Positions 5,820 through 50,226 are shown, counted from the stretch's first letter. The stretch: 64,000 bases of DNA from Burkholderiales bacterium (GCA_040007475.1 JBDTVC010000002.1:4921-68920); one strand, 5' to 3'. The notes: a model not told the origin generated them from the sequence alone. Translations and numbers: made by a program.

Positions 5820-5825
5820 GACAAC

Positions 5826-5935
5826 CCCTCGTCTGCGGAGTACCGCAGCCGATCCCCCGAGGGGATGTGGGCCGGCTTGGCCGGGCCACAAAGGGCCCCT
5901 GCGTGGCCCTTGCCCGGCGCTCGGCCCACCGCGTG
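5826..5935 (+). repeat. REP-like multi-hairpin intergenic repeat, copy A (with an internal insertion)
   Basis: CTGCGG-AGTA-CCGCAG hairpin (5833..5848), then ATCCCC-CGA-GGGGAT hairpin (5852..5866), then a GC-rich arm GGGCCGGCTTGG...CCCGGCGCTCGGCCC. Near-identical in order and sequence to 37141..37216. Confidence 0.75.
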
Positions 5936-13604: not shown

Positions 13605-13652
13605 GCAACGCGGCCGGGGCACCATCGCCAAGTCATAGGAACAAGGGAGACA

Positions 13653-31514: not shown

Positions 31515-32068
31515 CACGCTCCTGGGGTCAGCGTGCAGCGCGCCGCGCGGCCGAGGAAGTGGGAGAGCGGGGGCGTGGCCAGTTCGGCCTGCTTCGCCAG
31601 GTCGTCCCACTGCCGCAGCATCACCGCATTGCGCGCGCTGGGCAGCGCGATGAAGGCACCGGCCTGCTCGGCGCTGAACACGCCGCCTTGCAGCGCGAGG
31701 CTGCGTTTCGAGTCGTCCGACAGCTTCGCGTGGTAGCCGGGGTTGGCCTGGCACAGGTAGAGCTTCGCGTCGACGTGCAGCTTGATCGCATCGAGCACCG
31801 CGTCGGGGAACAGGCCGCGCAGGAACGGCAGCGCGAAGTACTGGTGCGTATCGTCGATGCCGCGCAGTGAAGGCGTCTCACCCTGATCGTTCAGCAGATG
31901 CCCGAGATCGTGCAGCAGGCAGGCGGTGATCAGCTCGTCGTCGGCACCCGATTGCTCGGCCAGGTGCGCCGTCTGCAGCGCGTGCTCCAGCTGCGTGACC
32001 GGCTCGCCGCTGTACTGGCTGGTGCCGTGGCGCGCGAAGAGGAGTTCGATGTCGGCGATGGAAAGCAT
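31514..32068 (-). CDS. HD-domain protein of the phosphonate-operon-associated PhnZ-like clade (putative mixed-valent di-iron oxygenase)
   Basis: 184 aa. GEPVTQLEHALQTAHLAEQSGADDELITACLLHDLGHLL closely resembles the PhnZ core (QLEH...HDLGH). It sits in a phnA/phnY operon. Confidence 0.75.
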   Translation of the reverse strand: MLSIADIELLFARHGTSQYSGEPVTQLEHALQTAHLAEQSGADDELITACLLHDLGHLLNDQGETPSLRGIDDTHQYFALPFLRGLFPDAVLDAIKLHVDAKLYLCQANPGYHAKLSDDSKRSLALQGGVFSAEQAGAFIALPSARNAVMLRQWDDLAKQAELATPPLSHFLGRAARCTLTPGA

Positions 32069-32073
32069 GGCGG

Positions 32074-33750
32074 TCAGCGATTCACTTCGTCGGGCGGCAG
32101 CGGCGCGAGCTGCGAGTGGCGGATTCGCGTCTTGCTCAGGGCGCCGGCCGATTCGAGGATCGGGTAGGCGATCGAGCAGATGTGCGAGTTGATGCGTTTG
32201 AGGTCGCTGATCAGGTCGATGTGAAGCGAGCTGGTCTCGATGCTCTGCGCCGTGTTGTCCTGCAGCCGGCCGATGTGGCTGGCGGCGTACTCGTGCTCGA
32301 GGTCACGGAAGCGCGCCTTCTCTTCGAGCAGCTTCTGCGCATCGCGCACATGGCCGTCGAGGAACACGCTCATTCCGAGCCGCAGGTTCGACATCAGCCG
32401 CTCGTGCAGGTGCACGATCTCGGCCATGCCGGCATCCGAGAAGCTGCGCGCCTTGCGGATCTTCTTGTCCTCGATGTCCTGGATCACGCGCTCGATGATG
32501 TCGCCGATCTGCTCCATGTTGATCGTGAACGAGACGATGTCGGTCCAGCGCCGGCTCTCCTCCTTCGATAGCGCCTCGCCCGAGATCTGGGTCAGGTAGA
32601 ACTTGATCGCCGAGTACAGCTCGTCGACCGTGTCGTCCATCTTGCGCAGCTGCTCGGCCAGCGCGAGGTCGTTGTGCTTGAGCACTGGCAGGATGCCGCG
32701 CATCATGGTTTCGACGATGTCGGCCTGGTGCAGTGCCTCACGTGCCGCGCAGGTGATCGCCAGCGACGGCGTGGCGAGCGCAGATGGGTCGAGGTGGCGC
32801 GGGCGGGCCATGTCGGCCGACAGCCGCGGCTCTTTCAGCGCGCGCTCGACGGTGCGTCCGACCAGCCCGGTGAAGCTGATGAACACCAGCGCCAGCGCCA
32901 CGTTGAAGCCGAGGTGGAAGAACACGACCTGCTGGTGCACATCCGGCACCAGCTGTCGCAGCGCGATGTGGACTTGCGGCATCAAGGGGATCGCGCCGAC
33001 CGCACCGACCGCCTTGAAGATCAGGTTGCCCATCGGCAGCCGCCGCACCTGCGGCGAGGCTCCGCTGGTCGCGATCATCGCGAGCAGGCCGCTGCCGAGG
33101 TTGGCGCCGAGCACCAGGCCGAGCGCGACCGGCACGGGGAGCAGGCCGGAACTCGCGAGCGTGGCGGTCAGCAGCACGATCGCCAGGCTCGAGTACGAGA
33201 ACACTGTGAGCACCGCACCGACGACGATGTCGAGCAGGATCTCGTTCGGCAGCGCGACGAGCAGCGCGCGCACCGCGGGCGATTCGGTCAGCGGGCGTGT
33301 GGCGCCGACGATCAGCTGCAGCGCGAGGGTGATCAGCCCGAGCCCGATCAGCACGCGGCCGATGCGGCCGGCGACGGTGTCTTGCCGCGAGATGAACATC
33401 ACGACGCCGGTGAAGATCAGCAGCGGCGACAGCCATGACAGGTCGAACGAGAACACGACCGCCATCAGGGCTGTGCCCACGTCGGCGCCCAGAATGACCG
33501 CCAGCGCGGCGGCGGTCGCGACCAGGCCCTTGCCAACGAACGACGCGACGATCAGGCAAGTGGCTGTGCTCGATTGCACGACGGTCGTGACGCCCAGGCC
33601 TGCGACGAGCGCGGTGAAACGGTTGCTGAAGCTCTTGGCGAGGACGCTGCGCAGGCTTTCACCGAAGACGCGCAGCACGCCGGTGCGGACGATGTGCGTG
33701 CCCCAGACGAGCAGAGCGATGGCGGCGAGCAGGTTGAGAAGGTGGATCAT
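32074..33750 (-). CDS. Na+/phosphate cotransporter-family protein with C-terminal PhoU-like domain (NptA/YjbB type)
   Basis: 558 aa. The N-terminal half is polytopic and contains the duplicated SSTATCLI-type motif. The C-terminal half is helical and PhoU-like (MDDTVDELYSAIKFYL). Confidence 0.85.
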   Translation of the reverse strand: MIHLLNLLAAIALLVWGTHIVRTGVLRVFGESLRSVLAKSFSNRFTALVAGLGVTTVVQSSTATCLIVASFVGKGLVATAAALAVILGADVGTALMAVVFSFDLSWLSPLLIFTGVVMFISRQDTVAGRIGRVLIGLGLITLALQLIVGATRPLTESPAVRALLVALPNEILLDIVVGAVLTVFSYSSLAIVLLTATLASSGLLPVPVALGLVLGANLGSGLLAMIATSGASPQVRRLPMGNLIFKAVGAVGAIPLMPQVHIALRQLVPDVHQQVVFFHLGFNVALALVFISFTGLVGRTVERALKEPRLSADMARPRHLDPSALATPSLAITCAAREALHQADIVETMMRGILPVLKHNDLALAEQLRKMDDTVDELYSAIKFYLTQISGEALSKEESRRWTDIVSFTINMEQIGDIIERVIQDIEDKKIRKARSFSDAGMAEIVHLHERLMSNLRLGMSVFLDGHVRDAQKLLEEKARFRDLEHEYAASHIGRLQDNTAQSIETSSLHIDLISDLKRINSHICSIAYPILESAGALSKTRIRHSQLAPLPPDEVNR

Positions 33751-33759
33751 CGAGTCAGG

Positions 33760-35202
33760 TCAGGCCCAGGGCAACGAATAGGTCTTGGTATTCGTGAAGC
33801 TCTTCATCGCTTCCTGGACGCCTTCCTTGTACCCCAATCCCGAGTCCTTGATGCCGCCGAAGGGTGTCAATTCCAAACGGTAGCCGGGCACCTCGCGCAC
33901 ATTGACCGTGCCGACCTGAAGCTCCGAAACGAACCGGCTGATGTAGTCGAGGCGGTTCGTGCACACGGCCGACGACAGACCGTAGGCGGTCCCGTTGCTG
34001 ATGCGGATCGCCTCGTCGATGCACGCGAAGGTGATGATCGGCGAGATGGGGCCGAAGGTCTCCTGCATCGCGACGGTCATGTCGGGGCGCACGCGATCGA
34101 TCACGGTGGGTGAGTACAGCGCGCCTTGCCGCCGGTTGCCGACAAGCAGGCGCGCGCCTTGCGCGATCGCCTCATCGACGCGCGACTCGAACAGCCGCGC
34201 CGCTTCCTCGTCGATCACCGTGCCCATCTCGTTCTTCAGGTCGCTCGGGTCGCCGTGCGACCAGGCTTTCGTCTTCTCGACCACCAGGTCGGTGAAGCGT
34301 GCAGCCACAGCCTCGTGCACCAGCATCCGCTTCACCGCGGTGCAGCGCTGACCCGAGTTCTTGTACGAGCCTTGCACCGCGAGCGTCGAGGCCTCGTCGA
34401 GGTCGGCGTCCTCCATCACGATGATCGGGTCGTTGCCGCCAAGCTCGAGCACCATGCGCTTGTAGCCGGCGGTCTTCGCGATGTACTTGCCAATCGCCAC
34501 GCCGCCGGTGAAGGTGACGAGGTCGACATCGGCGTTCGTGATCAGCTCGTCGGCGATCTCGCGCGGGTCGCCGGTCACGACCGAGAGCATCTCCGGCGGC
34601 AGGCCGGCCTCGTACAGCAGATCGGCGAAGAGCAGGGCCGACAGCGGCACCTTCTCGGAGGGTTTCAGCACCATCCGGTTGTTGGTCGCGATCGACGGCA
34701 CGACCTTGTGCGCAACCTGGTTCATCGGGTGGTTGAATGGCGTGATCGCGGTGATCACGCCGAGCAGGGGATCGCGCTGCGTGTAGACGCGGCGCTTCTT
34801 GCCGTGGGGCGTGAGGTCGCACGAGAAGATCTGACCGTCGTCCTTCAGGCACTCGTTGGCGCCGAACACCAGCACGTCGGCAACGCGGCCGGCTTCGTAG
34901 GTCGCATCCTTCAGGCTCAGGCCGGCCTCGGCGCTGATCAGCGCGGCGATCTGCGCGGTGCGCTCGCGCACGAGCAGCGCGGTCTTGTTCAGGATGTTCG
35001 AGCGCTCGAAGCGCGTCAGCGCGGCCTTGTAGGCCTTGCCGATCGCGAACGCCCGGCGCACGTCGTCGAGCGTGGCCTTGGGCACGCTGGCGATCGGCTG
35101 GTTCGTGAACGGATTGAAGACGACGATGCAGCGATCGCCGATGCGGTCCGTGCCGACCGTTTCGCCGGCTAATCTCATCCCGTGATTCTGGATCGCGTTC
35201 AT
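33760..35202 (-). CDS. phnY: Aldehyde dehydrogenase, predicted phosphonoacetaldehyde dehydrogenase
   Basis: ALDH motifs ELGGNDP and catalytic Cys GQRCTAVKR; 480 aa. Lies 4 nt downstream of the phosphonoacetate hydrolase gene. Substrate assignment is by context. Confidence 0.75.
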   Translation of the reverse strand: MNAIQNHGMRLAGETVGTDRIGDRCIVVFNPFTNQPIASVPKATLDDVRRAFAIGKAYKAALTRFERSNILNKTALLVRERTAQIAALISAEAGLSLKDATYEAGRVADVLVFGANECLKDDGQIFSCDLTPHGKKRRVYTQRDPLLGVITAITPFNHPMNQVAHKVVPSIATNNRMVLKPSEKVPLSALLFADLLYEAGLPPEMLSVVTGDPREIADELITNADVDLVTFTGGVAIGKYIAKTAGYKRMVLELGGNDPIIVMEDADLDEASTLAVQGSYKNSGQRCTAVKRMLVHEAVAARFTDLVVEKTKAWSHGDPSDLKNEMGTVIDEEAARLFESRVDEAIAQGARLLVGNRRQGALYSPTVIDRVRPDMTVAMQETFGPISPIITFACIDEAIRISNGTAYGLSSAVCTNRLDYISRFVSELQVGTVNVREVPGYRLELTPFGGIKDSGLGYKEGVQEAMKSFTNTKTYSLPWA

Positions 35203-35206
35203 TGCG

Positions 35207-37279
<2,073 letters not shown>

Positions 37280-37330
37280 TCAAGAAACAGTTGACGACCC
37301 ATTCGCGCCACCCCTAGACTGAAACCCAGC

Positions 37331-37346
37331 GGGCACAGCGCTTGCA
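37331..37346 (+). promoter_or_regulatory. Sigma54 (RpoN) promoter of the phnS operon
   Basis: GGGCAC-AGCGC-TTGCA compared with consensus TGGCAC-N5-TTGCA. The GG (37332-3) and GC (37344-5) have the canonical 12-nt register. It lies 36 nt upstream of the phnS ATG, with AGGAGA as the RBS in between. Confidence 0.7.
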
Positions 37347-37381: not shown

Positions 37382-38431
37382 ATGAATCTGGGTACCTTCA
37401 AGCCGCTGTTCGCGGTGCTGGCCATGGTGTCGGGTATGGCGGTTACCACCGCGGCCTTCGCGCAGAAGACGCAGCTCACCGTGTACACCGCGCTCGAGAC
37501 CGATCAGCTCAAGGCCTACGAGGCCGGCTTCACCAAGGTCAACCCCGACATCGAGATCAAGTGGGTGCGTGACTCCACTGGCGTGATCACCGCCAAGCTG
37601 CTGGCCGAGAAGGCGAACCCCCAGGCCGATGTGGTGATGGGTGTGGCCGCGTCCAGCCTCGCGCTGCTCGACACGAACGGCATGCTGATCCCGTACGCGC
37701 CGCTGAATCTCGACGGCATCATGAGCCAGTACCGTGACAAGAAGAACCCGCCGGCGTGGTTCGGCATGGACGTCTGGGGCGCGACCGTCTGCTTCAACAC
37801 CGTCGAGGCGCAGAAGAAGAACATCCCGAAGCCCGAGACCTGGAAAGACCTGACCAAGCCGGTCTACAAGGGCCAGATCGTGATGCCGAACCCGGCCTCG
37901 TCGGGCACCGGCTTCTTCGACGTGAGCGCGTGGCTCACGCTCTGGGGCGACGACAACGGCAAGGGCGGCGGCTGGAAGTTCATGGACGCGCTGCACGAGA
38001 ACATCGCGCAGTACACCCACTCGGGTTCGAAGCCCTGCAACATGGCGGCGACCGGCGAGTACGTGCTCGGCATCTCGTTCGAGTACCGCGGCAACACCAA
38101 CAAGGCCAAAGGCGCGCCGATCGACCTGGTGTTCCCGAAGGAGGGCCTGGGCTGGGACCTGGAAGCCTTCGCGATCCATGCCGGCACCAAGAAGCTCGCC
38201 GCGGCGAAGAAGCTCGCCGATTGGGCCTCGAGCAAGGACGCGATGAAGCTCTACGGCAAGAACTTCGCGATCACCGCGATCCCCGGCGTCGCCGAGCCGC
38301 TGAAGAACGTGCCGGCCGACTACGAAGCGCGTCTCGTGAAGATGGACTTCGCGACCACCGCGAAGAACCGCGAGCGGGTCTTGGCTGAGTGGAACAAGCG
38401 TTACGACACCAAGAGCGAAGCGAAGAAGTGA
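37382..38431 (+). CDS. phnS: 2-aminoethylphosphonate-type ABC transporter substrate-binding protein
   Basis: Signal peptide MNLGTFKPLFAVLAMVSGMAVTTAAFA; 349 aa. An Fe3+/spermidine-like SBP fold of the phnS2 type, followed by a matching ATPase and a fused permease. Confidence 0.8.
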   Translation: MNLGTFKPLFAVLAMVSGMAVTTAAFAQKTQLTVYTALETDQLKAYEAGFTKVNPDIEIKWVRDSTGVITAKLLAEKANPQADVVMGVAASSLALLDTNGMLIPYAPLNLDGIMSQYRDKKNPPAWFGMDVWGATVCFNTVEAQKKNIPKPETWKDLTKPVYKGQIVMPNPASSGTGFFDVSAWLTLWGDDNGKGGGWKFMDALHENIAQYTHSGSKPCNMAATGEYVLGISFEYRGNTNKAKGAPIDLVFPKEGLGWDLEAFAIHAGTKKLAAAKKLADWASSKDAMKLYGKNFAITAIPGVAEPLKNVPADYEARLVKMDFATTAKNRERVLAEWNKRYDTKSEAKK

Positions 38432-38452
38432 GCATGTCGTTGACGGAGACGA

Positions 38453-38520
38453 GCCCGAGCGCCCGGCCGCCCGAAGCCGGGCGAGACCCCCTTGGGGGGT
38501 GGTCGCTGTATTCGGCGACC
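38453..38520 (-). repeat. REP-like three-hairpin repeat, copy D (inverted orientation) inside the phnS-phnT spacer
   Basis: GCCCG-AGCGCCCGGCCGCCCGAAGC-CGGGC, then ACCCCC-TTG-GGGGGT, then GGTCGC-TGTATTCG-GCGACC. The same three modules as copies A to C, in reverse order and orientation. Confidence 0.7.
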
Positions 38521-38530
38521 GGGGGCTGAC

Positions 38531-39583
<1,053 letters not shown>

Positions 39584-39603
39584 GCCCGCTGGTACGCCGA
39601 TCC

Positions 39604-41322
39604 GTGTCCGCCGTCCTGACTTCGCCCGTGGCCGCGCTGCGCCAGCGCGCGCACTGGACCGACCGCATCGCGCACCTCGCGTTGCTGCTCGTCGTGCTGG
39701 CACTCGTGGTGTTTCTCGCACTGCCGCTGGCAAGCATCCTCGTCAAGGCGCTGCAGAGCAGCGATGGTGCGTTCGTCGGGTTGGTCAACTTCACGAGCTA
39801 CCTGGCGTCGCCGTCGCTGCTGACGTCGCTGTGGCACAGCGTGTGGATCTCGGCCGTCGTCACGGTCGTCACGCTGCCGCTGGCCTTCGGCTTCGCCTAC
39901 GCGCTGTCGCGCAGCTGCATGCCGTTCAAGGGGCTCTTTCGCACGATCGCGTTGATTCCGCTGCTGGCGCCGTCGCTCCTGTCGGCGCTGTCGCTGATCT
40001 ACTGGTTCGGCAACCAGGGGCTGGCGCGCGGGCTGATCCAGCGCCTGGGCTTCGAGAACATCTATGGCGCGCCGGGCATCGTCTTGGCCGAATGCTTCGC
40101 GGTGTTCCCGCACGTGCTGATGATCCTGATCACCGCGTTGTCGCTCGCCGACGCGCGGTTGTACGAAGCGGCGAACGCGCTGGGCACCGGCACGCGCCGC
40201 AAGTTCTTCACGATCACGCTGCCGGGCGCGAAGTACGGGCTGATTTCGGCCGCGTTGGTCGGGTTCACGCTGGTGATGACGGACTTCGGCATCCCGAAAG
40301 TGATCGGCGGCAACTTCAACATGCTCGCCACCGACGTGTTCAAGCTCGTGATCGGCCAGCAGGACTTCCAGCGCGGCGCCGTCGTCGGCCTGCTGCTGCT
40401 GACGCCGGCGCTGCTCACTTTCGGCATCGACTGGCTGGTGCAGCGAAAGCAGACGGCGATGCTGAGCGCGCGCGCGGTGCCGCTCAGGCCGAAGCCGTCG
40501 CGCGGGTTCGACGCGCTGATGCTCGGCTACGTCGGCCTCGTCAGCGCGCTGATGCTGGCGATGCTCGGCATGGCCGTCTTCGCCTCGTTCGCGACCTACT
40601 GGCCCTACAACCTGGCGCCGAGCTGGAAGCACTACACGATGGGCTTCGTCGACGCCGAGGTCGGCGAGGCCTTTCTGAACAGCCTGAAGCTCGCCGCCGG
40701 AACGGCGTTCTTCGGCACCATCGTCGTCTTCGTCGGCGCCTACATGCTCGAGAAGACCCGCGGCCTCGACGCGATCCGCCCGTTGGTGCGCCTGCTCGCG
40801 ATGCTGCCGATGGCGGTGCCGGGGCTGGTGCTCGGCCTCGGCTACATCTTCTTCTTCAACGCGCCCGGCAATCCGCTGAACGGTCTCTACCAGACGCTGA
40901 CGCTGCTCGTGATCTGCACCATCGTCCACTTCTACACGACCGGCCACCTGACGGCGGTGACGGCGCTGAAGGCGCTCGACGCGGAGTTCGAATCGGTCTC
41001 GGCCTCGCTGAAGGTGCCGTTCTTCAAGACCTTCTGGCGCGTCACGCTGCCGATCTGCACGCCGACCTTGCTCGACATCGCGCGCTACTTCTTCATCAAC
41101 GCGATGACGACGATCTCGGCGGTGGTCTTCTTGTACTCACCCTCGACCAAGGTCGCGTCGATCGCGATCCTGAACCTCGACGAAGCCGGCGAGGCCGGCG
41201 CCGCCGCGGCGTGCGCGGTACTCATCACGGCCGGTTCGACAGTCGTGACGCTGCTGTTCATCGCCCTGGGCTGGTGGGTGGACAAGCGGACTCAGGCCTG
41301 GCGCAACACGGCCACCCGATAG
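39604..41322 (+). CDS. phnU: AEP-type ABC transporter permease (fused double permease)
   Basis: About 572 aa with about 12 TM and two permease modules. There is no in-frame ATG near the 5' end, so GTG at 39604 (20 nt after the phnT stop) was chosen. The start is uncertain. Confidence 0.8.
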   Translation: MSAVLTSPVAALRQRAHWTDRIAHLALLLVVLALVVFLALPLASILVKALQSSDGAFVGLVNFTSYLASPSLLTSLWHSVWISAVVTVVTLPLAFGFAYALSRSCMPFKGLFRTIALIPLLAPSLLSALSLIYWFGNQGLARGLIQRLGFENIYGAPGIVLAECFAVFPHVLMILITALSLADARLYEAANALGTGTRRKFFTITLPGAKYGLISAALVGFTLVMTDFGIPKVIGGNFNMLATDVFKLVIGQQDFQRGAVVGLLLLTPALLTFGIDWLVQRKQTAMLSARAVPLRPKPSRGFDALMLGYVGLVSALMLAMLGMAVFASFATYWPYNLAPSWKHYTMGFVDAEVGEAFLNSLKLAAGTAFFGTIVVFVGAYMLEKTRGLDAIRPLVRLLAMLPMAVPGLVLGLGYIFFFNAPGNPLNGLYQTLTLLVICTIVHFYTTGHLTAVTALKALDAEFESVSASLKVPFFKTFWRVTLPICTPTLLDIARYFFINAMTTISAVVFLYSPSTKVASIAILNLDEAGEAGAAAACAVLITAGSTVVTLLFIALGWWVDKRTQAWRNTATR

Positions 41323-41332
41323 CGAGCACACG

Positions 41333-42133
41333 ATGACCCACGAACGATCCGACCTGCGACTGGCCGTCGCGCAGCAGCCGATGGAATGGACCACCGAGCG
41401 CAACGTGTTGCACATGATCACGGCGCTCGAGCTGGCGGCGGCACAGGGCGCGCAGCTCTGCCTGTTCCCCGAACTCGCGCTGACCGGGTTCCACCGGCAG
41501 GTTCGCGAGCAGGCGCGACCGGAGATCGTCGGGCCGGCGCTGCGGCGCGTGCGCGCGGCCTGCCGCGATGCCCGCGTCGCCAGCCTGATCGGGCTGCCGA
41601 CGTTCGGTGCCGATGGCGCGGTGTTGAACAGCTACGCGTTGGTCGACGCGGAGGGTGCCGTGGGCGCGACGATCCACAAGAACGGGCTGACGGCGGCCGA
41701 GCTGACCTTCTTCGCGGCCGGCACCGAGCGGCCGCTGACGCGCTTCGCCGGGCGCAATTGCACGACCGTGATGTGCCGCGAGATCGAGGACGTCGATGCG
41801 ATCGCAGCGCAGCTGGCCGATGAATCGGTTCAGCTCGTCTTCTGGCCGTCGATCGTCGGCTACCCGCCGGGCACGATCGCCGAGCCGGAGCGCGCCGTGC
41901 AGGGCCTGGGTTACCGCCAGCGCGCGGGCGAGTTCGCGCGGCGCTTCAACGCACACCTCGTGCAATGCAACTGGCCGCACGCGCTCAACACGCCGGAGCG
42001 CAACTACCAGGGCGAGAGCAAGGCCTACGGGCCCGATGGCGAGGTCCTGCTGACGTTGCCGCGCGACGAGGCCGGGCTGGCCGTCTTCGATCTCAGCGCG
42101 CGTGATTTTCAATGGACGCCGATGCCGGCGTGA
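41333..42133 (+). CDS. Carbon-nitrogen hydrolase (nitrilase-superfamily amidase)
   Basis: 266 aa. Candidate Glu-Lys-Cys triad in [16 protein letters not shown] and VMCREIED. Confidence 0.8.
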
Positions 42134-42152
42134 CAAGAACCAGGAGACCCCC

Positions 42153-43256
42153 ATGGACCGCGACGCCATCCTGCTGACCCCCGGCCCGCTGACGACCACC
42201 TTGCGCACCAAGCTCGCGATGCTGCGCGACTGGGGGTCGTGGGACACCGACTTCATCAAAGTCACCGCCGAGCTGCGGCGCCAGCTGCTTGCGATCGTGC
42301 ATGGCGAGGCCTCGCACACGGTCGTGCCCTTGCAAGGCAGCGGTACCTTCTCGGTCGAGGCGGCCGTCGCGACCGTGGTGCCTCGCGACGGTCACATGCT
42401 GGTGCTCGACAACGGCGCGTACTGCAAGCGGCTGGGCAAGCTCGCGACGCTGATGGGCCGGCGCACGACGATCATGGAGCACGCCGAGGACCAGGCCGTG
42501 TCGGCGCCCGCGCTGGACGCCAAGCTGAGCGAAGACCCGAGCATCACCCACGTCGGCTTCATCCACTGCGAGACCGGCACCGGCGTGCTGAACCCGCTGC
42601 AGGCGGTCAGCGAGGTCTGCGCGCGCCACGGCAAGGGGCTGATCATCGATGCGATGAGCTCGTTCGCCGCGCTGCCGATCGATGCGCGCGAGGTTCGGTT
42701 CGATGCGCTCGTGGCGGCCAGCGGCAAGTGCCTGGAGGGCGTGCCGGGCATGGGCTTCGTGTTCCTGCGCAAGGACATCCTGGCCGGTTGCGAGGGCCAA
42801 TCGCACTCGCTGGCGATGGACCTGTTCGACCAGCATGCCTATATGGAGAAGACCGGCCAGTGGCGCTTCACCCCGCCGACGCACGTGGTGGCGGCGCTGG
42901 CCGAGGCGCTGCGCCAGTACGAGGAGGAGGGCGGCCAGACCGCGCGCCTGGCGCGCTACACCGACAACTGCCGCACGCTGATCGACGGGATGCAGGCGCT
43001 GGGCTTCAAGCCGTTCCTGCCGGCGGCGCTGCAGGCGCCGATCATCGTGACGTTCCACGCCCCGGCCGATCGCGCCTACGAGTTCCGACCCTTCTACGAA
43101 GCGGCCAAGCAACGAGGCTTCATCCTGTACCCGGGTAAGCTGACGCAGGTCGAGACCTTTCGCGTCGGCTGCATCGGCGCGATCGGACGCAACGAGATGC
43201 AGCAGGCCGTGAACGCGGTCTCCGATTCGATGCGCGCGCTCGGCATCACCACCTGA
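42153..43256 (+). CDS. phnW: 2-aminoethylphosphonate:pyruvate aminotransferase
   Basis: [34 protein letters not shown] is the characteristic PhnW N-terminus; class-V aminotransferase, 367 aa. AGGAGA is the RBS. Confidence 0.9.
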
Positions 43257-43266
43257 GGATATTGCG

Positions 43267-44637
43267 ATGGCACAGAAGGAACATCCGGCACTTGCCGCCG
43301 TCCGCAAGTCGGGCACCGGCAAGGTCAAGGTCGCGGTCAGCGACATCGACGGGATCCTGCGTGGCAAGTACCTCCACATCGACAAGTTCCTCGGCGCCGC
43401 GGAGCCGCACCCGAACGGCGGCTTCGGCTTCTGCGACGTGGTGTTCGGCTGGGACGCGAACGACAACTGCTACGACAACGCGACGCTGACCGGCTGGCAG
43501 CACGGCTTCCCGGATGCGCTGGCGCGGCTCGATCTCGGCACGCACCGCCACGTGCCGTGGGACGACGGCGTGCCGATGTTCCTTGGCGAGTTCGTCAACG
43601 GCGACGGCAGCCCCTCGCCGATCTGCCCGCGCCAGACGCTCAAGCGTGTGCTCAAGCGCGCCGGGAAGCTCGGCGTGCTGCCGATGGCCGGCATGGAGTT
43701 CGAGTGGTTCAACTTCAGTGAAACGCCGCAGAGCTGGGCCAGCAAGCGCGGCGTCGGTCCGGAGCCGATCACGCCGGGCATGTTCGGCTATTCACTGCTG
43801 CGCATGAACCACAAGCGCGAATTCTTCAAGGCGCTGATGGACGAGATGCCGCTGTTCGGCGTGCCCATCGAAGGCCTGCATACCGAGACCGGGCCCGGTG
43901 TCTACGAAGTGGCCATCGCGTTCAGCGAGGCGCTCGAGCAGGCCGACCGTGCGATCCTGTTCAAGACCGGCGCGAAGGAGATCGGCGCGCGCTTCGGCGT
44001 GATGCCCAGCTTCATGGCGAAGTGGAACCAGCAGCTGCCGGGCTGCTCGGGGCACATCCACCAGAGCCTGTCGGACGGCAAGACGAATCTGTTCTTCGAC
44101 GCGAAGTCGCCGCGCAAGATGAGCAAGCTGTTCGAGAGCTACCTCGCGGGTCAGGTCGCATGCCTGATGGAGATGGCGCCGATGTTCTGGCCGACGATCA
44201 ACAGCTACAAGCGGCTGGTCGACGGCTTCTGGGCACCGGTCAAGCCGACCTGGGGCATCGACAACCGCACGGCGAGCTTTCGCGTGATCGCCGGCAGCCC
44301 GAAGGCCACGCGTCTCGAGACGCGCTGCCCTGGTGCCGACGTGAACCCGTACCTCGCGATGGCCGCGGTGATCGCCGCCGGCCTGCACGGTGTCGAGAAG
44401 GGCCTGAAGCTCACCGCGCCGCCGATCACCGGCACCAATGGCGGGGCAGAGCACATCCCGCGCGCGCCGCGCACGCTGATCGAGACGACGATCAATTTCA
44501 AGCAGTCGACCATCGCCCGCGACTGGTTCGGCGACGACTTCGTCGACCACTTCGCGGCCACGCGCGAGTGGGAGTGGCGGCAGTGGCTGGACGGCGTGAC
44601 CGACTGGGAACTGAAGCGCTACTTCGAGATCATCTGA
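43267..44637 (+). CDS. Glutamine-synthetase-family ligase (predicted gamma-glutamyl-amine synthetase, PuuA/GlnA-like)
   Basis: 456 aa with GS catalytic-domain strings GMEFEWF, HTETGPGVYEVA, GCSGHIHQSL, NSYKRL and NRTASFRV. It lacks the GlnA adenylylation loop seen in the true glnA at 53704. Confidence 0.8.
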   Translation: MAQKEHPALAAVRKSGTGKVKVAVSDIDGILRGKYLHIDKFLGAAEPHPNGGFGFCDVVFGWDANDNCYDNATLTGWQHGFPDALARLDLGTHRHVPWDDGVPMFLGEFVNGDGSPSPICPRQTLKRVLKRAGKLGVLPMAGMEFEWFNFSETPQSWASKRGVGPEPITPGMFGYSLLRMNHKREFFKALMDEMPLFGVPIEGLHTETGPGVYEVAIAFSEALEQADRAILFKTGAKEIGARFGVMPSFMAKWNQQLPGCSGHIHQSLSDGKTNLFFDAKSPRKMSKLFESYLAGQVACLMEMAPMFWPTINSYKRLVDGFWAPVKPTWGIDNRTASFRVIAGSPKATRLETRCPGADVNPYLAMAAVIAAGLHGVEKGLKLTAPPITGTNGGAEHIPRAPRTLIETTINFKQSTIARDWFGDDFVDHFAATREWEWRQWLDGVTDWELKRYFEII

Positions 44638-46220
44638 TGAATGCGTGGGTCACCCGGATCGTTGCCCTGGCCTTGTGCGCCGCCGCAGGCACCGCGAACG
44701 CGGTCACGCTGCGAATCGCCAGTGCGTTCGACCCGCAGACGATGGACCCGCACGCGATCGCGCTGCTGTACCAGACGCGCGTCTCGGCGCAGGTCTACGA
44801 GTCGCTGCTCAATCGTGACGAACGGTTCCAGCTGGAGCCCTCGCTTGCGCTGTCGTGGCAGGCGGTGAGCCCGACCCTGTGGCGCTTCAAGCTGCGGCCC
44901 GGCGTGTTTTTCCACGACGGCACGCCGTTCACGGCCGATGATGCGGTGTTCTCGTTCGACCGCGCGATGGCGCCGCCCTCGCAGCGCTCGTTCCAGCTCA
45001 AAGGCGTGAAGGCGGTCCGCAAGGTCGACCTGCTGACGATCGAGATCGACCTCGAGGCGCCCGATTCGGTGCTGCCCGAGAAACTCACGCAGCTCGGCAT
45101 GGTGAGCAAGGCCTGGTGCGTGAAGCACGGCGTCGAGAAGGCCCAGGACTTCAACGGCAAGCAGGAGACCTTCGCGGTGCGCAACGCCAACGGCACCGGC
45201 CCGTTCGCGCTCGACCGCTTCGAGCCGGACGTGCGGACCGTGCTCAAGCGCAACCCGCGCTGGTGGGGTGGCCGTGAGCAGGGCGCCGACAAGCGCAACG
45301 GCAATCTCGACGAGGTCACGCTGGTCGCGATCCGCTCCGACGCCACGCGCATTGCCGCGCTGATCTCGGGCGAGATCGACCTGGTGCTGGACCCGCCGGT
45401 GCAGGATGTCGAGCGCCTGAAGGGCGAGTCGGCGATCAAGCTGCAGCAGATCACCGACCTCGGCCAGCAGTACCTCGCGCTGGACGTCGGTCGCGACGAG
45501 CTGACCGACAGCGACGTGAAGGGCAAGAACCCGTTCAGGGACCTGCGCGTGCGCCGGGCGATCTACCACGCGTTGAACATGCCGCTCCTGACTCAGAAGG
45601 TCTTGCGCGGCCTGGGTGTGCCGACCGGTGCGTTCCTGTCGCCCCGCGTCGACGGCTCGCCGCCGGAGCTCGACAAGCGATTGCCTTACGACGTGGTGGA
45701 GGCGAAGGCGCTGCTCACAGAAGCCGGGTATCCGAACGGCTTCGCGATCACGCTGGATTGCGTCAATGTGCCGTGGCGCGAGGCGGCCTGCCAGGCCATG
45801 GCCGCGATGCTGACGCAAGCCGGGATCCGCGCGACGATGCGCAGCGCGCCGACCAACCAGTTCTTCCCGAAGCTGACCGGCGCGACCGCGAGTTTCATGG
45901 AGTTCGGCTGGACGCCGAGCCCCGACGCGTGGGCATCGTTGAACGCGCTGTTCCGCACCTGGGACAAGTCGGGCGGCGGCACCTTCAACGGCGGCCGCTA
46001 CAGCAACGCGAAGCTCGACGCCTTGATCGACAATCTGCGCGTCGAGCCCGACCTGACCCGTCGCCGCGCGATGGTCGGCACCGTACTGCGGATGGTCGGC
46101 GACGACCTGCCGCTGATCCCGTTGTATCGCCGCACGCTGACCTGGGCGATGAGCAACAAGGTCAGCACCGTTCAATGGCCCAACGACTCGCCCGAGTTGC
46201 GCTGGGTTCGCCTCAAGTAA
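44637..46220 (+). CDS. Family-5 (peptide/opine/nickel-type) ABC substrate-binding protein, orphan
   Basis: Signal peptide MNAWVTRIVALALCAAAGTANA; 527 aa. The ATG shares one nt with the upstream TGA. No cognate permease or ATPase genes are adjacent. Confidence 0.8.
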   Translation: MNAWVTRIVALALCAAAGTANAVTLRIASAFDPQTMDPHAIALLYQTRVSAQVYESLLNRDERFQLEPSLALSWQAVSPTLWRFKLRPGVFFHDGTPFTADDAVFSFDRAMAPPSQRSFQLKGVKAVRKVDLLTIEIDLEAPDSVLPEKLTQLGMVSKAWCVKHGVEKAQDFNGKQETFAVRNANGTGPFALDRFEPDVRTVLKRNPRWWGGREQGADKRNGNLDEVTLVAIRSDATRIAALISGEIDLVLDPPVQDVERLKGESAIKLQQITDLGQQYLALDVGRDELTDSDVKGKNPFRDLRVRRAIYHALNMPLLTQKVLRGLGVPTGAFLSPRVDGSPPELDKRLPYDVVEAKALLTEAGYPNGFAITLDCVNVPWREAACQAMAAMLTQAGIRATMRSAPTNQFFPKLTGATASFMEFGWTPSPDAWASLNALFRTWDKSGGGTFNGGRYSNAKLDALIDNLRVEPDLTRRRAMVGTVLRMVGDDLPLIPLYRRTLTWAMSNKVSTVQWPNDSPELRWVRLK

Positions 46221-46233
46221 CCGGCTTCGCACC

Positions 46234-47373
46234 ATGAGCATCACCCGCTTCTCGTTCCCGACCATCATCCATTTCGGCGCCGGCGCGCGCGCGCTCGCCG
46301 GGCCGCACCTGAAGGACCTCGGGCTGCGCCGCCCGCTGATCGTCACCGACAAGGGCTTGGCCGCGCTGCCGCTGATGAAGGAGTTCGCTGCCGGCCTCGA
46401 TTCGGCCGGGCTCGCGGTGGCGGTGTACGGCGGCGTGTTCGGCAACCCGACCGGCAGCCAGGTGATGGGCGGTGCCGCGGCCTACAAGGCACACGAAGCG
46501 GACTGCGTGATCGGCGTGGGTGGCGGTGCTGCGCTCGATGTGGCCAAGGTCGTCGGCCTGCTGGCCACGCACCCCGGCGACGTGATGGAGTACGTCTGGG
46601 ATCACCCGCAGGTCCGCGCGATCGATCCGGCCATGTTGCCGTACTTCATCGCGCTGCCGACCACCTCGGGCACCGGCAGCGAGGTCGGCCGCAGCAGCGT
46701 GATCAGCGAGGAGGAGTCGCACGTCAAGCGCGTGATCTTCTCGCCGGCGATCCTTGCCAAGGTGGTGTTCGCCGACCCCGAACTCACGCTCGGCCTCCCG
46801 CCGGCCGTGACCGCGGCGACCGGCATGGACGCGCTCACGCACAACATCGAGAGCTACCTCTCGCCCGCGTACCACCCGCTGTGCGACGGCATCGCGCTCG
46901 AAGGCACGCGCATCGCCGCGCGTGCGCTGCTGACGGCGGTGCGCGAGCCGGGCAACGTGCAGGCGCGCGCCGACATGATGATGAGCTCGATGATGGGTGC
47001 GATCGCATTCCAGAAAGACCTGGGCGCGGTGCACTCGTGCGCGCATGCGCTCGGCACGGTGTGCGACCTGCACCACGGTCTGGCCAACGCGCTGATGATC
47101 GAGCCGGTGATGAGCTACAACCGCGAAGCGGTGCCGCACAAGTTCGCCGAACTCGCGCACGCTGTTGGCGTGTCGTCCGTGAGCGGCTTCGTGCCGTGGC
47201 TGGCACACCTGAAGCAACGGGTCGGTATCCCGCCAGGGCTGGCCGCTGCCGGTGTCAGGCGCGAGCAGATTCCGCGGTTGGTCGAGATCGCCACGCGGGA
47301 CATCTGCCACCAGACCAATCCGCGCCCCTGCGAGGCGGCCGATTTCGAGCGCTTCTTCAAGGAAGCGTACTGA
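46234..47373 (+). CDS. Group-III iron-containing alcohol dehydrogenase
   Basis: 379 aa with VIGVGGGAALDVAK and His-rich metal-site strings (HNIESY, HSCAHALG). Confidence 0.85.
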   Translation: MSITRFSFPTIIHFGAGARALAGPHLKDLGLRRPLIVTDKGLAALPLMKEFAAGLDSAGLAVAVYGGVFGNPTGSQVMGGAAAYKAHEADCVIGVGGGAALDVAKVVGLLATHPGDVMEYVWDHPQVRAIDPAMLPYFIALPTTSGTGSEVGRSSVISEEESHVKRVIFSPAILAKVVFADPELTLGLPPAVTAATGMDALTHNIESYLSPAYHPLCDGIALEGTRIAARALLTAVREPGNVQARADMMMSSMMGAIAFQKDLGAVHSCAHALGTVCDLHHGLANALMIEPVMSYNREAVPHKFAELAHAVGVSSVSGFVPWLAHLKQRVGIPPGLAAAGVRREQIPRLVEIATRDICHQTNPRPCEAADFERFFKEAY

Positions 47374-47374
47374 C

Positions 47375-48181
47375 ATGGCCAAGCCTCTCATCATCGGCAT
47401 CTCGGCGCGCATCCACCATCCGGTCGGGCCGGTCCGCGACCTCGGCGGCGTCTATGCCAAGACGCTGCACTACCTCGAACAATCGGTCGCGCACTGGGTG
47501 CTCGCGAAAGACGTGCTCGCGGTGATGATCCCCGCGATCGAGAGCCAGGGCCTGATCGAGCGGAGCGAGATGAGCCTGAGCTCGTACGCCGAGTACCTCG
47601 ATGGCCTGGTGTTGCAGGGCGGCGCCGACATCGCGCCGCAGAGCTACGGCGAGACGCCACTGCACGCCGACTGGGCTGGCGACGCGGTGCGCGACCGCTA
47701 CGAGATCGATCTGTTCAACGCCTTCGTGGCCGCCGGCAAGCCGGTGATCGGCATCTGCCGTGGCTGCCAGCTTATCAACGTGGCGCTGGGCGGCACGCTG
47801 TTCCAGGACATCCCGACACAGCTGCCTTCAGCCGTCTCGCACCGCGACACCTCGATGTACGAGCGCGCGCTCCACGACGTGAGCTTCGTCGCCGGCTCGA
47901 AGCTGGCCACGCTGTACCCGGGCAGGGCGCAATCGAAGATCAACACCATCCACCACCAGGCCGTGAAGGACCTGGGCCGTGACCTGGTGATCGAGGCGGT
48001 GGGCGTTCCCGACGGCGTGGTCGAGGCGATCCGCTGGCGCGGGCCGAGCTATGTGTTCGGGATGCAATGGCACCCCGAGTTCCTCGCGCTGGCCACGCTC
48101 GACCAGGCGCAGCTGGACGGGGGCCCGATCCTGAAGGACTTCCTCGACAACGCGCGTGCCTGCCGCGACGCAATGACCTGA
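47375..48181 (+). CDS. Gamma-glutamyl-gamma-aminobutyrate-hydrolase-like amidotransferase (peptidase C26, PuuD family)
   Basis: Begins MAKPLIIGISAR. Nucleophile Cys in GICRGCQLINVALGG and His in MQWHPEF. Starts 1 nt after the ADH stop. Confidence 0.85.
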   Translation: MAKPLIIGISARIHHPVGPVRDLGGVYAKTLHYLEQSVAHWVLAKDVLAVMIPAIESQGLIERSEMSLSSYAEYLDGLVLQGGADIAPQSYGETPLHADWAGDAVRDRYEIDLFNAFVAAGKPVIGICRGCQLINVALGGTLFQDIPTQLPSAVSHRDTSMYERALHDVSFVAGSKLATLYPGRAQSKINTIHHQAVKDLGRDLVIEAVGVPDGVVEAIRWRGPSYVFGMQWHPEFLALATLDQAQLDGGPILKDFLDNARACRDAMT

Positions 48182-48193
48182 CTCCACCTCACC

Positions 48194-49561
48194 ATGCTGA
48201 AGATCCACAACCCCGCCACCGGCGCGCTGATCGCCGAAGTCCCCGAGGCCACGCCGGAGATCGTCGCCGAGCGCTTCCGTGCCGCGCGCGCCGCGCAACC
48301 GGCGTGGTTCGCCACCCCGCTGGAGGCGCGGCTGCAGGTGATGCAGCGCTTCCGCGTCGCGGTGGCGGCCGAGGTCGAATCGCTGGCGTCCACGCTGACG
48401 GCCGAGGTCGGCAAGCCGATCCGGCAGTCGCGCAACGAGCTGAACGGCTTGCTCGGCCGCGTCGACTTCTTCCTGACGCAGGCGGCGGCCACCCTGGCGC
48501 CGCAGCAGGTGTTCGACGAAGGCGGCACGCGCGAGGTCATCAGCTTCGACCCGCTCGGCGTGATCGCGAACATCTCGGCCTGGAACTACCCGTACTTCGT
48601 CGGCGGCAACGTGTTCGTGCCGGCGTTGCTGGCCGGCAATGCGGTGCTGTACAAGCCTTCGGAGTTCGCCACGCTCACGGGCCTGCACATCGCGCGGCTG
48701 CTGCATGAGTCGGGCGTGCCGCTCGACATCTTCGTGCCGCTGGTCGGCCGCGGTGAAGTCGGCGCCGCGCTGCTCGCGCAGAATATCGACGGCGTGTTCT
48801 TCACCGGCTCTCATGCGACCGGCGCAAAGATCGCGCAGACCGTCGGCCCGCGCTTCATCAAGCTGCAGCTTGAACTCGGCGGCAAGGACCCGACCTACGT
48901 CGCCGAAGACGCCGATCCGAAGATCGCCGCCGAGTCGCTCGCCGACGGCGCGATGTACAACGCCGGCCAGAGCTGCTGTTCGGTCGAGCGCATCTACGTG
49001 CACGAAAGCATCCACGATGCCTTCGTCGACGCGTTCGTCGACACGGTGCGCGGCTTCAGGATGGGCAACCCGACCAGCGAGGAGACCTACATCGGCGCGA
49101 TCACGCGCGCGCCGCAACTCGACGTGCTCGACGCACAGGTCGCCGACGCGCAAGCCAAGGGCGCGACGCTGCGCACTGGCGGCCACCGAGCGGCGGGGCC
49201 AGGCAACTGGTTCGAGCCCACGGTGTTCACCGGCGTGAACCACACGATGGAGTTGATGCGCGAGGAGAGCTTCGGGCCGGTCATCGGCATCCAGAAGGTC
49301 GCCAGCGACGCCGAGGCTCTGGCGCTGATGAACGATACGCGCTACGGCCTGACGGCCGGCGTGTTCACGAAGGACGAGGCGAGAGCACGTGCGCTGCTCG
49401 CGAAGGTCAACGCTGGCAGCGTCTACTGGAACTGCTGCGACCGCGTCAGCCCGCGGCTGCCGTGGTCTGGGCACGGCGATTCGGGTGTCGGTCTGACCTT
49501 GTCCACGTTCGGCATCCAGACCTTCACGCGGCCGCGTGCGTGGCATCTGCGCCAACCGTGA
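48194..49561 (+). CDS. NAD(P)-dependent aldehyde dehydrogenase
   Basis: 455 aa with ELGGKDP and catalytic Cys GQSCCSVERIYV. Confidence 0.88.
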   Translation: MLKIHNPATGALIAEVPEATPEIVAERFRAARAAQPAWFATPLEARLQVMQRFRVAVAAEVESLASTLTAEVGKPIRQSRNELNGLLGRVDFFLTQAAATLAPQQVFDEGGTREVISFDPLGVIANISAWNYPYFVGGNVFVPALLAGNAVLYKPSEFATLTGLHIARLLHESGVPLDIFVPLVGRGEVGAALLAQNIDGVFFTGSHATGAKIAQTVGPRFIKLQLELGGKDPTYVAEDADPKIAAESLADGAMYNAGQSCCSVERIYVHESIHDAFVDAFVDTVRGFRMGNPTSEETYIGAITRAPQLDVLDAQVADAQAKGATLRTGGHRAAGPGNWFEPTVFTGVNHTMELMREESFGPVIGIQKVASDAEALALMNDTRYGLTAGVFTKDEARARALLAKVNAGSVYWNCCDRVSPRLPWSGHGDSGVGLTLSTFGIQTFTRPRAWHLRQP

Positions 49562-50226
49562 CGCGGCTGGCGCTGTTCGATCTCGACCACACGCTGTTGA
49601 CGGGCGACAGCGATGTGCTGTGGTGCGAATTCCTGATGGACGCCGGCGTGCTCGACCGTGCCGAGTTCGAGCCGCGCAATGCCGACATGGCGCGCCGTTA
49701 CGGCGACGGCAGCGTCAGCGCGGCGGACTTCTGCGATTTCTACGTGTCCACACTCGCCGGCCGCACGCTGAGTGAGTGGCGGCCATGGTGCGAGCGTTTC
49801 CTGAGCGAAGTGATCGCGCCGAGGATCCCCGCCTCGGCGCGTGCCCTGGTCGAGTCGCACCGCGAGCGCGGCGACCGGATCGTGATGACGACCGCGACGA
49901 ACCGGGTGCTCACCGAGCTGACGGCGCAGCACCTCGGCATCGACGACCTGCTCGCAACCGAGGTCGAAGTGATCGGCGGCCGCTGCAGCGGCCGCACCCG
50001 GGGAGTGCTGAACATGAGGGAAGGCAAGGTCGAACGGCTGAAGTCTTGGTTGGCCGATCAGGGATGGCCGGCCGACGCGCTGGCCGGTGCCGTGTTCTAC
50101 AGCGATTCGGCGAACGACCTGCCGCTGCTTCGCTCGGTCGGGCAGCCCATCGTCGTCGATCCTGACCCGCAACTGCGGCGGCACGCGGCGATGGCCGGAT
50201 GGTCACTTGTGGAATTGGCCCGCTGA
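49558..50226 (+). CDS. HAD-IB family phosphatase (SerB-like subfamily)
   Basis: The GTG start overlaps the ALDH stop (GTGA). Motif [10 protein letters not shown], motif with TATN, and late motif [11 protein letters not shown]. Confidence 0.75.

Follow-up and report, generated by a model that had tools for sequence, protein, structure and literature searches.

What brings genes for the import and transamination of 2-aminoethylphosphonate (AEP) into one string with genes that resemble a pathway for the gamma-glutamylation of amines? The question is raised by eleven plus-strand genes at positions 37382–50226 of a 64,000-nucleotide stretch of DNA from a Burkholderiales bacterium of soil or fresh water (GCA_040007475.1, JBDTVC010000002.1:4921-68920), referred to here, at its full length, as the window. 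A previous interpretation made from the sequence alone (the sequence-only reading) had proposed either a joint regulon, in which AEP is used through PhnW, PhnY and PhnA and ethanolamine through gamma-glutamylethanolamide to glycine and glutamate, or a gamma-glutamylated aminophosphonate intermediate. The first of these is supported by ethanolamine-permease and EutR-like neighbours of related modules, and nothing was found in favour of the second, the module also standing alone without phn genes. We consider it fairly probable that the operon is a composite catabolic unit for two-carbon amines under one divergent control region of the PhnR type (GntR).

Gene identities were taken from profile searches with NCBIfam equivalog cut-offs and with Pfam. 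The string begins with phnS2 (37382–38431), for an AepX-type periplasmic AEP-binding protein (TIGR03261, 498 bits vs. a cut-off of 393), phnT2 (38531–39583), for the ATPase of an ATP-binding cassette (ABC) transporter (TIGR03265, 509 bits vs. 458), and phnU2 (39604–41322, GTG start at 39604), for its fused permease (TIGR03262, 789 vs. 593), followed by a gene for a nitrilase-superfamily amidase (CN_hydrolase, 41333–42133; PF00795, 74 bits) and phnW (42153–43256), for AEP-pyruvate transaminase (NF010006, 573 vs. 296; TIGR02326, 505 vs. 401). Next comes the gene for a glutamine synthetase (GS)-like, ATP-dependent gamma-glutamyl-amine ligase, a candidate gamma-glutamylethanolamide synthetase (43267–44637; Gln-synt_C, 296 bits), and then that for an orphan family-5 solute-binding protein with a signal peptide (SBP_bac_5, here SBP5, 44640–46220; PF00496, 265 bits). 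The remaining four genes encode a group-III iron alcohol dehydrogenase (Fe-ADH, 46234–47373; Pfam Fe-ADH and ADH_Fe_C), a candidate gamma-glutamylethanolamide dehydrogenase; a PuuD/SpuA-like Peptidase_C26 protein (C26, 47375–48181; PF07722, 174 bits), a candidate gamma-glutamylglycine hydrolase; an aldehyde dehydrogenase (ALDH, 48194–49561; PF00171, 424 bits), a candidate gamma-glutamyl-aminoacetaldehyde dehydrogenase; and a HAD-IB phosphatase (49558–50226; TIGR01490, 128 bits vs. 98), a candidate phosphoethanolamine phosphatase. Profile models thus back the gene calls of the sequence-only reading for every gene. The NCBIfam equivalog cut-offs are passed by phnS2, phnT2, phnU2 and phnW, and none is reached by CN_hydrolase, GS-like, SBP5, Fe-ADH, C26, ALDH or HAD.

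The gaps between successive genes are 99, 20, 10, 19, 10, 2, 13, 1, 12 and −4 nt, the last being an overlap of the HAD gene start with the ALDH gene stop; the tight packing described before, with spacings of −4 to +20 nt and one 99-nt exception, is confirmed by the coordinates. Each gene has one clear frame by third-position G+C above 0.8 (0.83–0.93 in the operon; about 67% total G+C in the window). The wide gap behind phnS2 (38432–38530, plus strand) had been described as filled by a hairpin repeat. The hairpins were confirmed, three of them with a fold of −60.7 kcal/mol (z = −4.1); the repeat was not, as no 14-mer of the spacer was found again elsewhere in the window, and an Rfam search of 30000–56000, spacer included, gave no match. 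A dispersed repeat or known RNA was accordingly rejected, and the gap is a structured spacer. Terminator-like matches between 36900 and 51200 are at chance level (7 observed vs. 6.7 expected from shuffles), and the two on the plus strand are weak and lie within genes, in agreement with the earlier statement that no terminator interrupts the string. Judging by spacing alone, we infer that the eleven genes are co-transcribed as one operon.

The enzymes behind phnW point to a pathway that masks an amine with glutamate. The GS-like protein, a Gln-synt_C domain alone, does not reach the cut-off of the models of GlnA, GSIII or gamma-glutamylputrescine synthetase. Its alignment keeps E129, E131, E212, E220, H269, E357, R321, R339, R344 and R359, the ligands of metal, ATP and glutamate, while the ammonium-flap residue E327 is changed to W and N264 to P, and the adenylylation tyrosine Y397 is absent; E. 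coli GlnA and the GlnA encoded in the window both served as references and give the same pattern. Because the catalytic ligands are kept while these three positions are changed or missing, the protein is probably an active ligase other than an ammonia-specific glutamine synthetase. When a plasmid collection was searched for an annotated orthologue, the best match was 46% identical. The Fe-ADH most resembles 4-hydroxybutyrate, 1,3-propanediol and lactaldehyde enzymes, and the solved structures closest to the C26 protein are Lin1909, SpuA and PuuD. Reading of the translations revealed GxCxG and HPE motifs in the C26 protein, ELGGK and the catalytic cysteine in the ALDH, and DxDxT in the HAD protein.

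The Puu-like masking logic put forward by the sequence-only reading fits these enzymes: as in the E. coli Puu pathway, an amine would be masked with glutamate, oxidized, with an ALDH step, and released by a hydrolase of the C26 type. Unlike Puu, the operon lacks an FAD amine oxidase and has the Fe-ADH in its place, which indicates an alcohol rather than a second amine; the substrate should therefore be an amino alcohol. The individual proteins also stand apart from their Puu counterparts, the GS-like protein reaching 153 bits vs. a cut-off of 650 for gamma-glutamylputrescine synthetase (PuuA) and the C26 protein 77.5 bits vs. 266 for PuuD. In the pathway that we propose from genomic context, the GS-like ligase would join glutamate to ethanolamine using ATP, the Fe-ADH and then the ALDH would oxidize gamma-glutamylethanolamide, via the aldehyde, to gamma-glutamylglycine, and the C26 hydrolase would free glycine and glutamate.

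To assess how widely the two parts are linked, relatives of the GS-like gene were collected by a scan of one genome per GTDB species, which gave at least 590 matches; the best 80 (83–96% identity) were taken with 10-kb flanks and read by tblastn with the window proteins, counts being limited to loci with enough flank (individual loci and contigs are cited by L numbers). They belong to Rhizobacter, Rubrivivax, Polaromonas, Ramlibacter, Rhodoferax, Ideonella, Piscinibacter, Curvibacter and other genera, the nearest relatives being from Rhizobacter, Piscinibacter and other Burkholderiales. Upstream of the GS-like gene and on the same strand, phnW is found in 57 of the 70 loci whose sequence on that side extends to 1.4 kb or more, directly adjacent in 45, and phnS2 together with phnU2 in 35 of the 46 loci with at least 6.5 kb. 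On the 3' side the Fe-ADH (56/59), C26 (48/56), ALDH (49/53) and HAD (32/49) genes follow. The fused order occurs in at least eight named genera within differing chromosomal neighbourhoods, and because gene order recurs across so many genera the arrangement is far beyond chance; a condition that the sequence-only reading had named for its own refutation, a linkage not conserved in relatives, is thus not borne out.

Two genes of the window operon, CN_hydrolase and SBP5, are accessory to this core. Among the 80 loci and the window, the lineage-specific CN_hydrolase gene, which lies between phnU2 and phnW, is present only in the window and in its close relative L005 (1468–2290); its product has an apparent Glu-Lys-Cys triad, read by eye and unaligned to a solved nitrilase-superfamily enzyme, and, speculatively, may deacylate an N-acylated amine. 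SBP5 occurs in about 12 of the 80 loci (e.g. L055, L073, L023, L027 and L028) at varying operon positions and with no cognate permease, and it accompanies the gamma-glutamyl module also in loci devoid of phn genes. Relatives also carry insertions within the operon, among them toxin-antitoxin pairs, a GNAT gene and an AAA ATPase gene. In Rubrivivax-type loci a PbfA gene follows the HAD gene (646 bits vs. a cut-off of 525 in L055), so that the module is embedded inside the phosphonate operon; in L055 PbfA is at 12179–13621, between C26 and SBP5. In L078 (3599–4834), phnW and the GS-like gene are separated by a gene for an FAD oxidoreductase of the DAO family that may be PbfB/C/D-like. Between the GS-like and Fe-ADH genes, Polaromonas/Rhodoferax-type operons (L015, L037, L041, L060, L064, L068, L069, L072, L076 and L089–L094) carry a small GNAT acetyltransferase weakly similar to RimI and arsinothricin N-acetyltransferases, and the Rubrivivax/Ideonella-type loci L019, L042 and L049 carry an apparent toxin-antitoxin pair (PIN/VapC-like and AbrB-like, by eye).

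The identity of the amine is suggested by three lines of context, of which the first is that the module is a separable unit. It stands alone in L011, L023, L027 and L028, and in three Rhodoferax/Albidiferax loci (L063, L072 and L080) an APC permease and a regulator of the PhnR type accompany it, with a ATTGTTAACAAT operator and a TTGACA hexamer ahead of the GS-like gene and no phn genes. In Polaromonas aquatica (L076), a EutR-like AraC regulator (NF007522, 145 bits) and an ethanolamine-permease homologue (TIGR00908, 370.7 bits vs. a cut-off of 381.75; next family, 120 bits) lie between phnW and the GS-like gene, which directly follows the permease homologue and is 83% identical to that of the window. 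A Curvibacter metagenome-assembled genome (L040) has a EutR-like gene next to the order permease-GS-ADH-C26-ALDH, with no phn genes in view, and the permease-GS layout is also seen in metagenome contigs L089–L102, L147 and L158. In the reverse test, 80 metagenome contigs encoding relatives of the ethanolamine-permease homologue were taken, 49 of which had at least 1.5 kb downstream; in 26 of these 49 a GS-like gene begins within 400 nt downstream. Sixteen of the 26 are of the window type (74–84% identity), two of a Legionella/B. vietnamiensis type (48%), and eight of a type represented by PDB entry 5DM3 (about 34% to the window protein, and 56–59% identical to 5DM3 itself).

The last type provides a further connection to ethanolamine. 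We take 5DM3 to be Csal_0679; our analysis confirms the genus only, the 5DM3 sequence being 94% identical to a Chromohalobacter protein whose locus reads RpiR, then FGase-DctQ-DctM-DctP-GS-ALDH-FeADH. This order matches that of the Phaeobacter ethanolamine cluster as drawn in PMC10132767 and there attributed to C. salexigens and A. tumefaciens. A literature search for '5DM3' returned nothing relevant. Since one permease family partners three GS-like subfamilies, one of which is the published ethanolamine gamma-glutamylase, the window type would be a third, C26-using variant, and, by this line of analysis, the module most likely acts on ethanolamine.

A gamma-glutamyl route of ethanolamine catabolism is itself published (PMC10132767, citing Vetting et al. 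2015; PMC6529630), a point that the sequence-only reading did not take into account; the logic of the pathway is therefore not new, and novelty is limited to the fusion with an AEP operon and to the enzyme variant. The described examples are the ETAGA/GETADH/GAADDH/GGAH cluster of Phaeobacter MED193, the C. salexigens Csal_0678-type cluster cited to Vetting et al. 2015 (both PMC10132767) and the GlnA4 pathway of Streptomyces (PMC6529630). The window module shares with the published system the four steps of GS-like ligase, alcohol dehydrogenase, aldehyde dehydrogenase and amidohydrolase; with 5DM3-type clusters it further shares homologous GS-like, ALDH and Fe-ADH proteins at 33–41% identity (37–41% for Fe-ADH and ALDH) and, in relatives, a window-type GS gene directly behind the same ethanolamine-permease family. 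Compared with 5DM3 and 11zs, to which it is 33% and 34% identical, the window GS-like protein forms a separate subfamily. Published ethanolamine clusters use a hydrolase of the FGase family (PF05013 in Chromohalobacter; PMC6529630), whereas that of the window is a Peptidase_C26, its gene order is GS-ADH-C26-ALDH, and it is fused into an AEP operon. The Chromohalobacter cluster also has an RpiR regulator and a TRAP transporter, whereas the window has a PhnR-type GntR regulator (EutR-like in some relatives) and no TRAP transporter. Because its ligase belongs to a separate subfamily and a C26 protein replaces the FGase, the module should be regarded as a variant, and not a member, of the characterized ethanolamine system.

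The AEP part of the locus is conventional, and here the family assignments are strong. Divergently from phnS2, on the minus strand, lie phnR (36433–37134), for a GntR/FCD-type regulator of phosphonate utilization (TIGR03338, phnR_burk, 334 vs. 271.5), phnA (35207–36436), for phosphonoacetate hydrolase (TIGR02335, 593 bits vs. 408), and phnY (33760–35202), for phosphonoacetaldehyde dehydrogenase (TIGR03250, 846 bits vs. 636). As phnW, phnY and phnA all score above phosphonate-specific cut-offs, the full PhnW-PhnY-PhnA route is present: AEP would be imported by PhnS2T2U2 and transaminated by PhnW to phosphonoacetaldehyde, which PhnY and PhnA would turn into acetate and phosphate. The ALDH of the operon was considered as a second PhnY and rejected (TIGR03250, 222 vs. 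636). PhnS2 is 56% identical to its S. meliloti 1021 pSymB homologue, and its closest solved structures are the organophosphate/phosphate-ester binders AfuA and P5PA (pyridoxal-phosphate-binding). With the S. meliloti pSymB and Paraburkholderia AEP systems the window shares PhnW-PhnY-PhnA, the PhnS2T2U2 (AepXVW-type) importer and PhnR, and with Paraburkholderia also the divergent layout of phnA-phnY and phnS2T2U2-phnW. In the AEP clusters of Paraburkholderia and Ralstonia, phnS2T2U2 are likewise found, and a gamma-glutamyl module is not; where an FAD oxidoreductase follows phnW in Paraburkholderia, the window has the four-gene module and HAD-IB, and the Ralstonia cluster differs in using PhnX and an FAD oxidoreductase. 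The AEP accessory enzymes described so far, PbfA-D (PMC8154272, PMC10590968), include no GS-like/C26 pair. The literature that we searched, two Peracchi-group papers about recurrent enzymes of AEP clusters among it, nowhere connects gamma-glutamylation with the catabolism of AEP.

If both branches operate, the HAD-IB gene may be what bridges them. It is present in 30 of 37 loci with phnW vs. none of eight stand-alone modules (Fisher p = 3e-5), and it moves with the operon into differing chromosomal neighbourhoods. Its best equivalog model is that of histidinol-phosphatase (NF052360, 229.9 bits vs. a cut-off of 280, not reached), a family that dephosphorylates a 2-aminoalkyl phosphate, histidinol phosphate. 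A PhnX-like phosphonatase was rejected, as the protein is of subfamily IB and matches no PhnX model. Phosphoethanolamine is the O-for-CH2 isostere of AEP, and a role of the HAD protein as phosphoethanolamine phosphatase is plausible. Free ethanolamine would arrive through the permease in stand-alone modules; in phn-fused modules it would come from phosphoethanolamine, imported by PhnS2T2U2 or derived from the cell's own lipid turnover, which HAD-IB would hydrolyse to ethanolamine in the cell. This bridging step is the most speculative part of our proposal, and we hold it tentatively, at somewhat less than even chances. The sequence-only reading had likewise routed phosphoethanolamine through this phosphatase, and its co-occurrence with phn genes agrees with that assignment.

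Several observations weigh against the joint use of AEP and ethanolamine as we picture it. The window is without an ethanolamine transporter of its own, the permease homologue of P. aquatica scores just below the TIGR00908 cut-off, and about half of the permease relatives have unrelated neighbours; eutBC were looked for beside them and none were seen. The GS-like protein is just 33% identical to the Chromohalobacter enzyme, and the model gives no role to SBP5 and CN_hydrolase. With regard to the bridging step, HAD could be a housekeeping histidinol-phosphatase, or it could serve the phosphonate branch, since a homologue with 42% identity is also present in the Ralstonia AEP cluster, which is without the module. 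Lastly, phosphoethanolamine is not among the ligands discussed in PMC8316502.

These points leave room for other explanations, of which the most provocative is that the GS-like ligase glutamylates AEP, 1-hydroxy-AEP or a related compound, with the ADH, ALDH and C26 enzymes processing a gamma-glutamyl-aminophosphonate. The 10 nt that separate phnW from the GS-like gene in the window, their adjacency in 45 of 70 loci, the embedding of the module between phnW and HAD-pbfA in Rubrivivax-type loci, and the PhnR operator ahead of the module even where phn genes are absent would all sit well with it. AEP, however, has no hydroxyl or aldehyde for the ADH/ALDH pair to act on; orthologous modules (83–84% identity) without phn genes follow genes for ethanolamine-permease and EutR-like proteins, the permease family in question also partners the characterized ethanolamine-type GS, and the literature offered no link to AEP. 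We therefore regard this explanation as very improbable, and equally so the variant in which an aminophosphonate, for instance (R)-1-hydroxy-AEP, is a further or the actual substrate of the ligase in phn-fused operons; were that true, the Fe-ADH and ALDH would act on the gamma-glutamyl-phosphonate, for example by oxidizing its C1 hydroxyl to give an acyl-phosphonate from which phosphorus is lost, and this would be an undescribed route of C-P cleavage via gamma-glutamyl intermediates.

Of the more conservative explanations, one would assign the module to another amino alcohol or amine (3-aminopropanol, alaninol, aminobutanol or a polyamine-derived compound), with ethanolamine as at most a side substrate and the phn fusion reflecting no more than shared control by nitrogen or phosphorus. 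The relationships of the Fe-ADH described above are compatible with this, as are those of the GS-like protein, which shares about 40% identity with plasmid genes that carry the annotation ipuC (gamma-glutamylisopropylamide synthetase) and 44–46% with GS-like genes in varied amine contexts; further, the APC permease of L063, L072 and L080 belongs to the amino-acid/choline family and not to the ethanolamine-permease family. Yet the position directly beside ethanolamine-permease homologues and EutR-like regulators, found repeatedly, speaks for ethanolamine specifically, and neither a monooxygenase (as in Ipu) nor an amine oxidase (as in Puu) is present, so that we consider another amine unlikely, if less so than an aminophosphonate. 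It may also be that no functional coupling exists, two independent units having been juxtaposed by rearrangement in an ancestor of these Burkholderiales and a housekeeping histidinol-phosphatase caught at the 3' end. Each unit does exist apart elsewhere, the HAD protein does match histidinol-phosphatase best, and many unrelated insertions have entered the operon in relatives. Against mere juxtaposition, the fused order has been kept in at least eight named genera with different neighbourhoods, junctions are of 1–20 nt or overlapping, a PhnR operator fronts the stand-alone module too, and HAD is never found with stand-alone modules and yet accompanies most phn loci; we judge it improbable, falling between the other two. 

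The control region that would serve both branches was compared with 36 related phnR-phnS2 intergenic regions. A candidate PhnR operator, ATTGTCAACAAT (37266–37277), is a 5-bp inverted repeat with a 2-bp centre, and the motif ATTGT-CA-ACAAT is kept in 31 of the 36. About 13 nt past the operator a TTGAC(A/G) hexamer, followed by a −10-like hexamer, is conserved across loci; in the window a consensus scan placed a sigma70-like promoter, TTGACG-18-TAGACT, at 37291–37320 on the plus strand. Together these elements look like a sigma70-type promoter with a GntR-type operator. The gene string had been described as sigma54-driven. A sigma54-like −24/−12 element, GGGCACAGCGCTTGCA (37331–37346, plus strand), does exist, with one mismatch to TGGCAC-N5-TTGCW and its end 36 nt ahead of the phnS2 ATG, and a GG-N10-GC element is kept in the close relatives L003 and L004 and in L014 despite diverged flanks, with a similar motif at another position in L013; as just 4 of the 36 related upstream regions have the motif, conserved drive by sigma54 was rejected. 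Drive by sigma54 is plausible for this lineage, because ntrC is nearby and the motif is kept while its flanks diverge, and is not a general rule; what is family-wide is the PhnR operator with the sigma70-like promoter. The operon contains no gene for an enhancer-binding protein, ntrC lying 6.6 kb downstream, and the intergenic region, read through without a pattern search, showed no evident NtrC-site-like sequence.

Downstream of the promoter, at the position of the sigma54-like site, 19 of the 36 loci carry tandem GTCA(T/C)-N6-GTCA(T/C) repeats with an 11-bp period (0.3% in background), which resemble Pho boxes; none are present upstream of the window operon. The sigma54-like and Pho-box-like elements are mutually exclusive among the 36 loci, an exchange that looks like a swap from phosphorus to nitrogen control of AEP/ethanolamine catabolism. 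One related locus (L006, 4500–5240) is a deletion derivative in which phnS2T2U2 are lost and only the 3' part of phnW is left, fused behind the PhnR operator and promoter, under which the GS-like, Fe-ADH and C26 genes remain. A 65-nt GC-rich element with internal hairpins at 37131–37195, abutting the phnR start codon, has a 78% identical copy at 5816–5880 and a related copy in L006, and resembles a REP-type intergenic repeat.

The divergent operon continues beyond phnY, on the minus strand, with a gene for a Na/Pi-cotransporter-related membrane protein with C-terminal PhoU domains (32074–33750; TIGR00704, 265.7 vs. 210.1; Pfam Na_Pi_cotrans and PhoU); TIGR00704 is a generic model, whereas the other divergent genes pass phosphonate-specific ones. 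Where phn genes are lacking, in L023, L027 and L028, the gene directly adjoins the gamma-glutamyl module; it was also noted in L008, and its product may export phosphate. The last recognizable phosphonate gene of this operon encodes a PhnZ-like HD-domain phosphonate oxygenase (31514–32068, minus strand; TIGR03276, 236.8 vs. 214.6; Pfam HD), whose substrate may be environmental (R)-1-hydroxy-AEP; among the genes examined there is no PhnY*/TmpA-type 2-oxoglutarate dioxygenase as its partner. On the 3' side of the HAD gene follow, in order, a TIGR00266-family gene, a deacetylase gene, an open reading frame without an NCBIfam match, a CinA-like gene, an open reading frame that reads, by eye, as a type I glutamine synthetase, and ntrB and ntrC. 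Upstream of the phosphonate island lies an unrelated sugar ABC transporter and sugar-acid cluster, where two stretches in or just after the UgpC-like ATPase gene (24235–24401 and 25362–25528, 1127 nt apart) are 71% identical to each other and also resemble part of phnT2 (62%); the likeness suggests two tandem ATPase genes, the second of which was not called there.

A plasmid cluster of R. leguminosarum Vaf10 (L083, NZ_CP016289.1 333318-352637) was considered as support for a link between PhnW and gamma-glutamylation and rejected, as its PhnW-like protein is borderline (330 vs. 361 and 401) and its neighbours, a homologue of the arginine hydroxylase GntB and an OAH-sulfhydrylase-like enzyme, point to another pathway. 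Also present there are a PuuD-like C26 protein, a GMC oxidoreductase, a GS-like protein (44% identity) and an ALDH, and the cluster may be another gamma-glutamyl pathway, acting on some amine.

Both parts of the operon are of known kinds, while the fusion of an AEP operon with this module and the ligase/C26 variant appear undescribed. With the variant, the gamma-glutamyl ethanolamine pathway would gain its third GS-like subfamily as well as a hydrolase of the C26 type, and the HAD-IB protein would be a candidate bacterial cytoplasmic phosphoethanolamine phosphatase. Known chemistry would be unchanged unless the improbable phosphonate reading were true. The arrangement also raises the question of whether transporters of the AepX/PhnS2 type, which are used as markers of AEP cycling, carry phosphoethanolamine as well. 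Phosphonolipids and phospholipids have AEP and ethanolamine/phosphoethanolamine as their chief head groups among two-carbon amines. The conserved operon, found in many Burkholderiales of soils and fresh waters, would serve both from one control region, and its Pho-box-like or sigma54-like elements suggest that the scavenging of head groups may form one trait that is adjusted to limitation by phosphorus or nitrogen.

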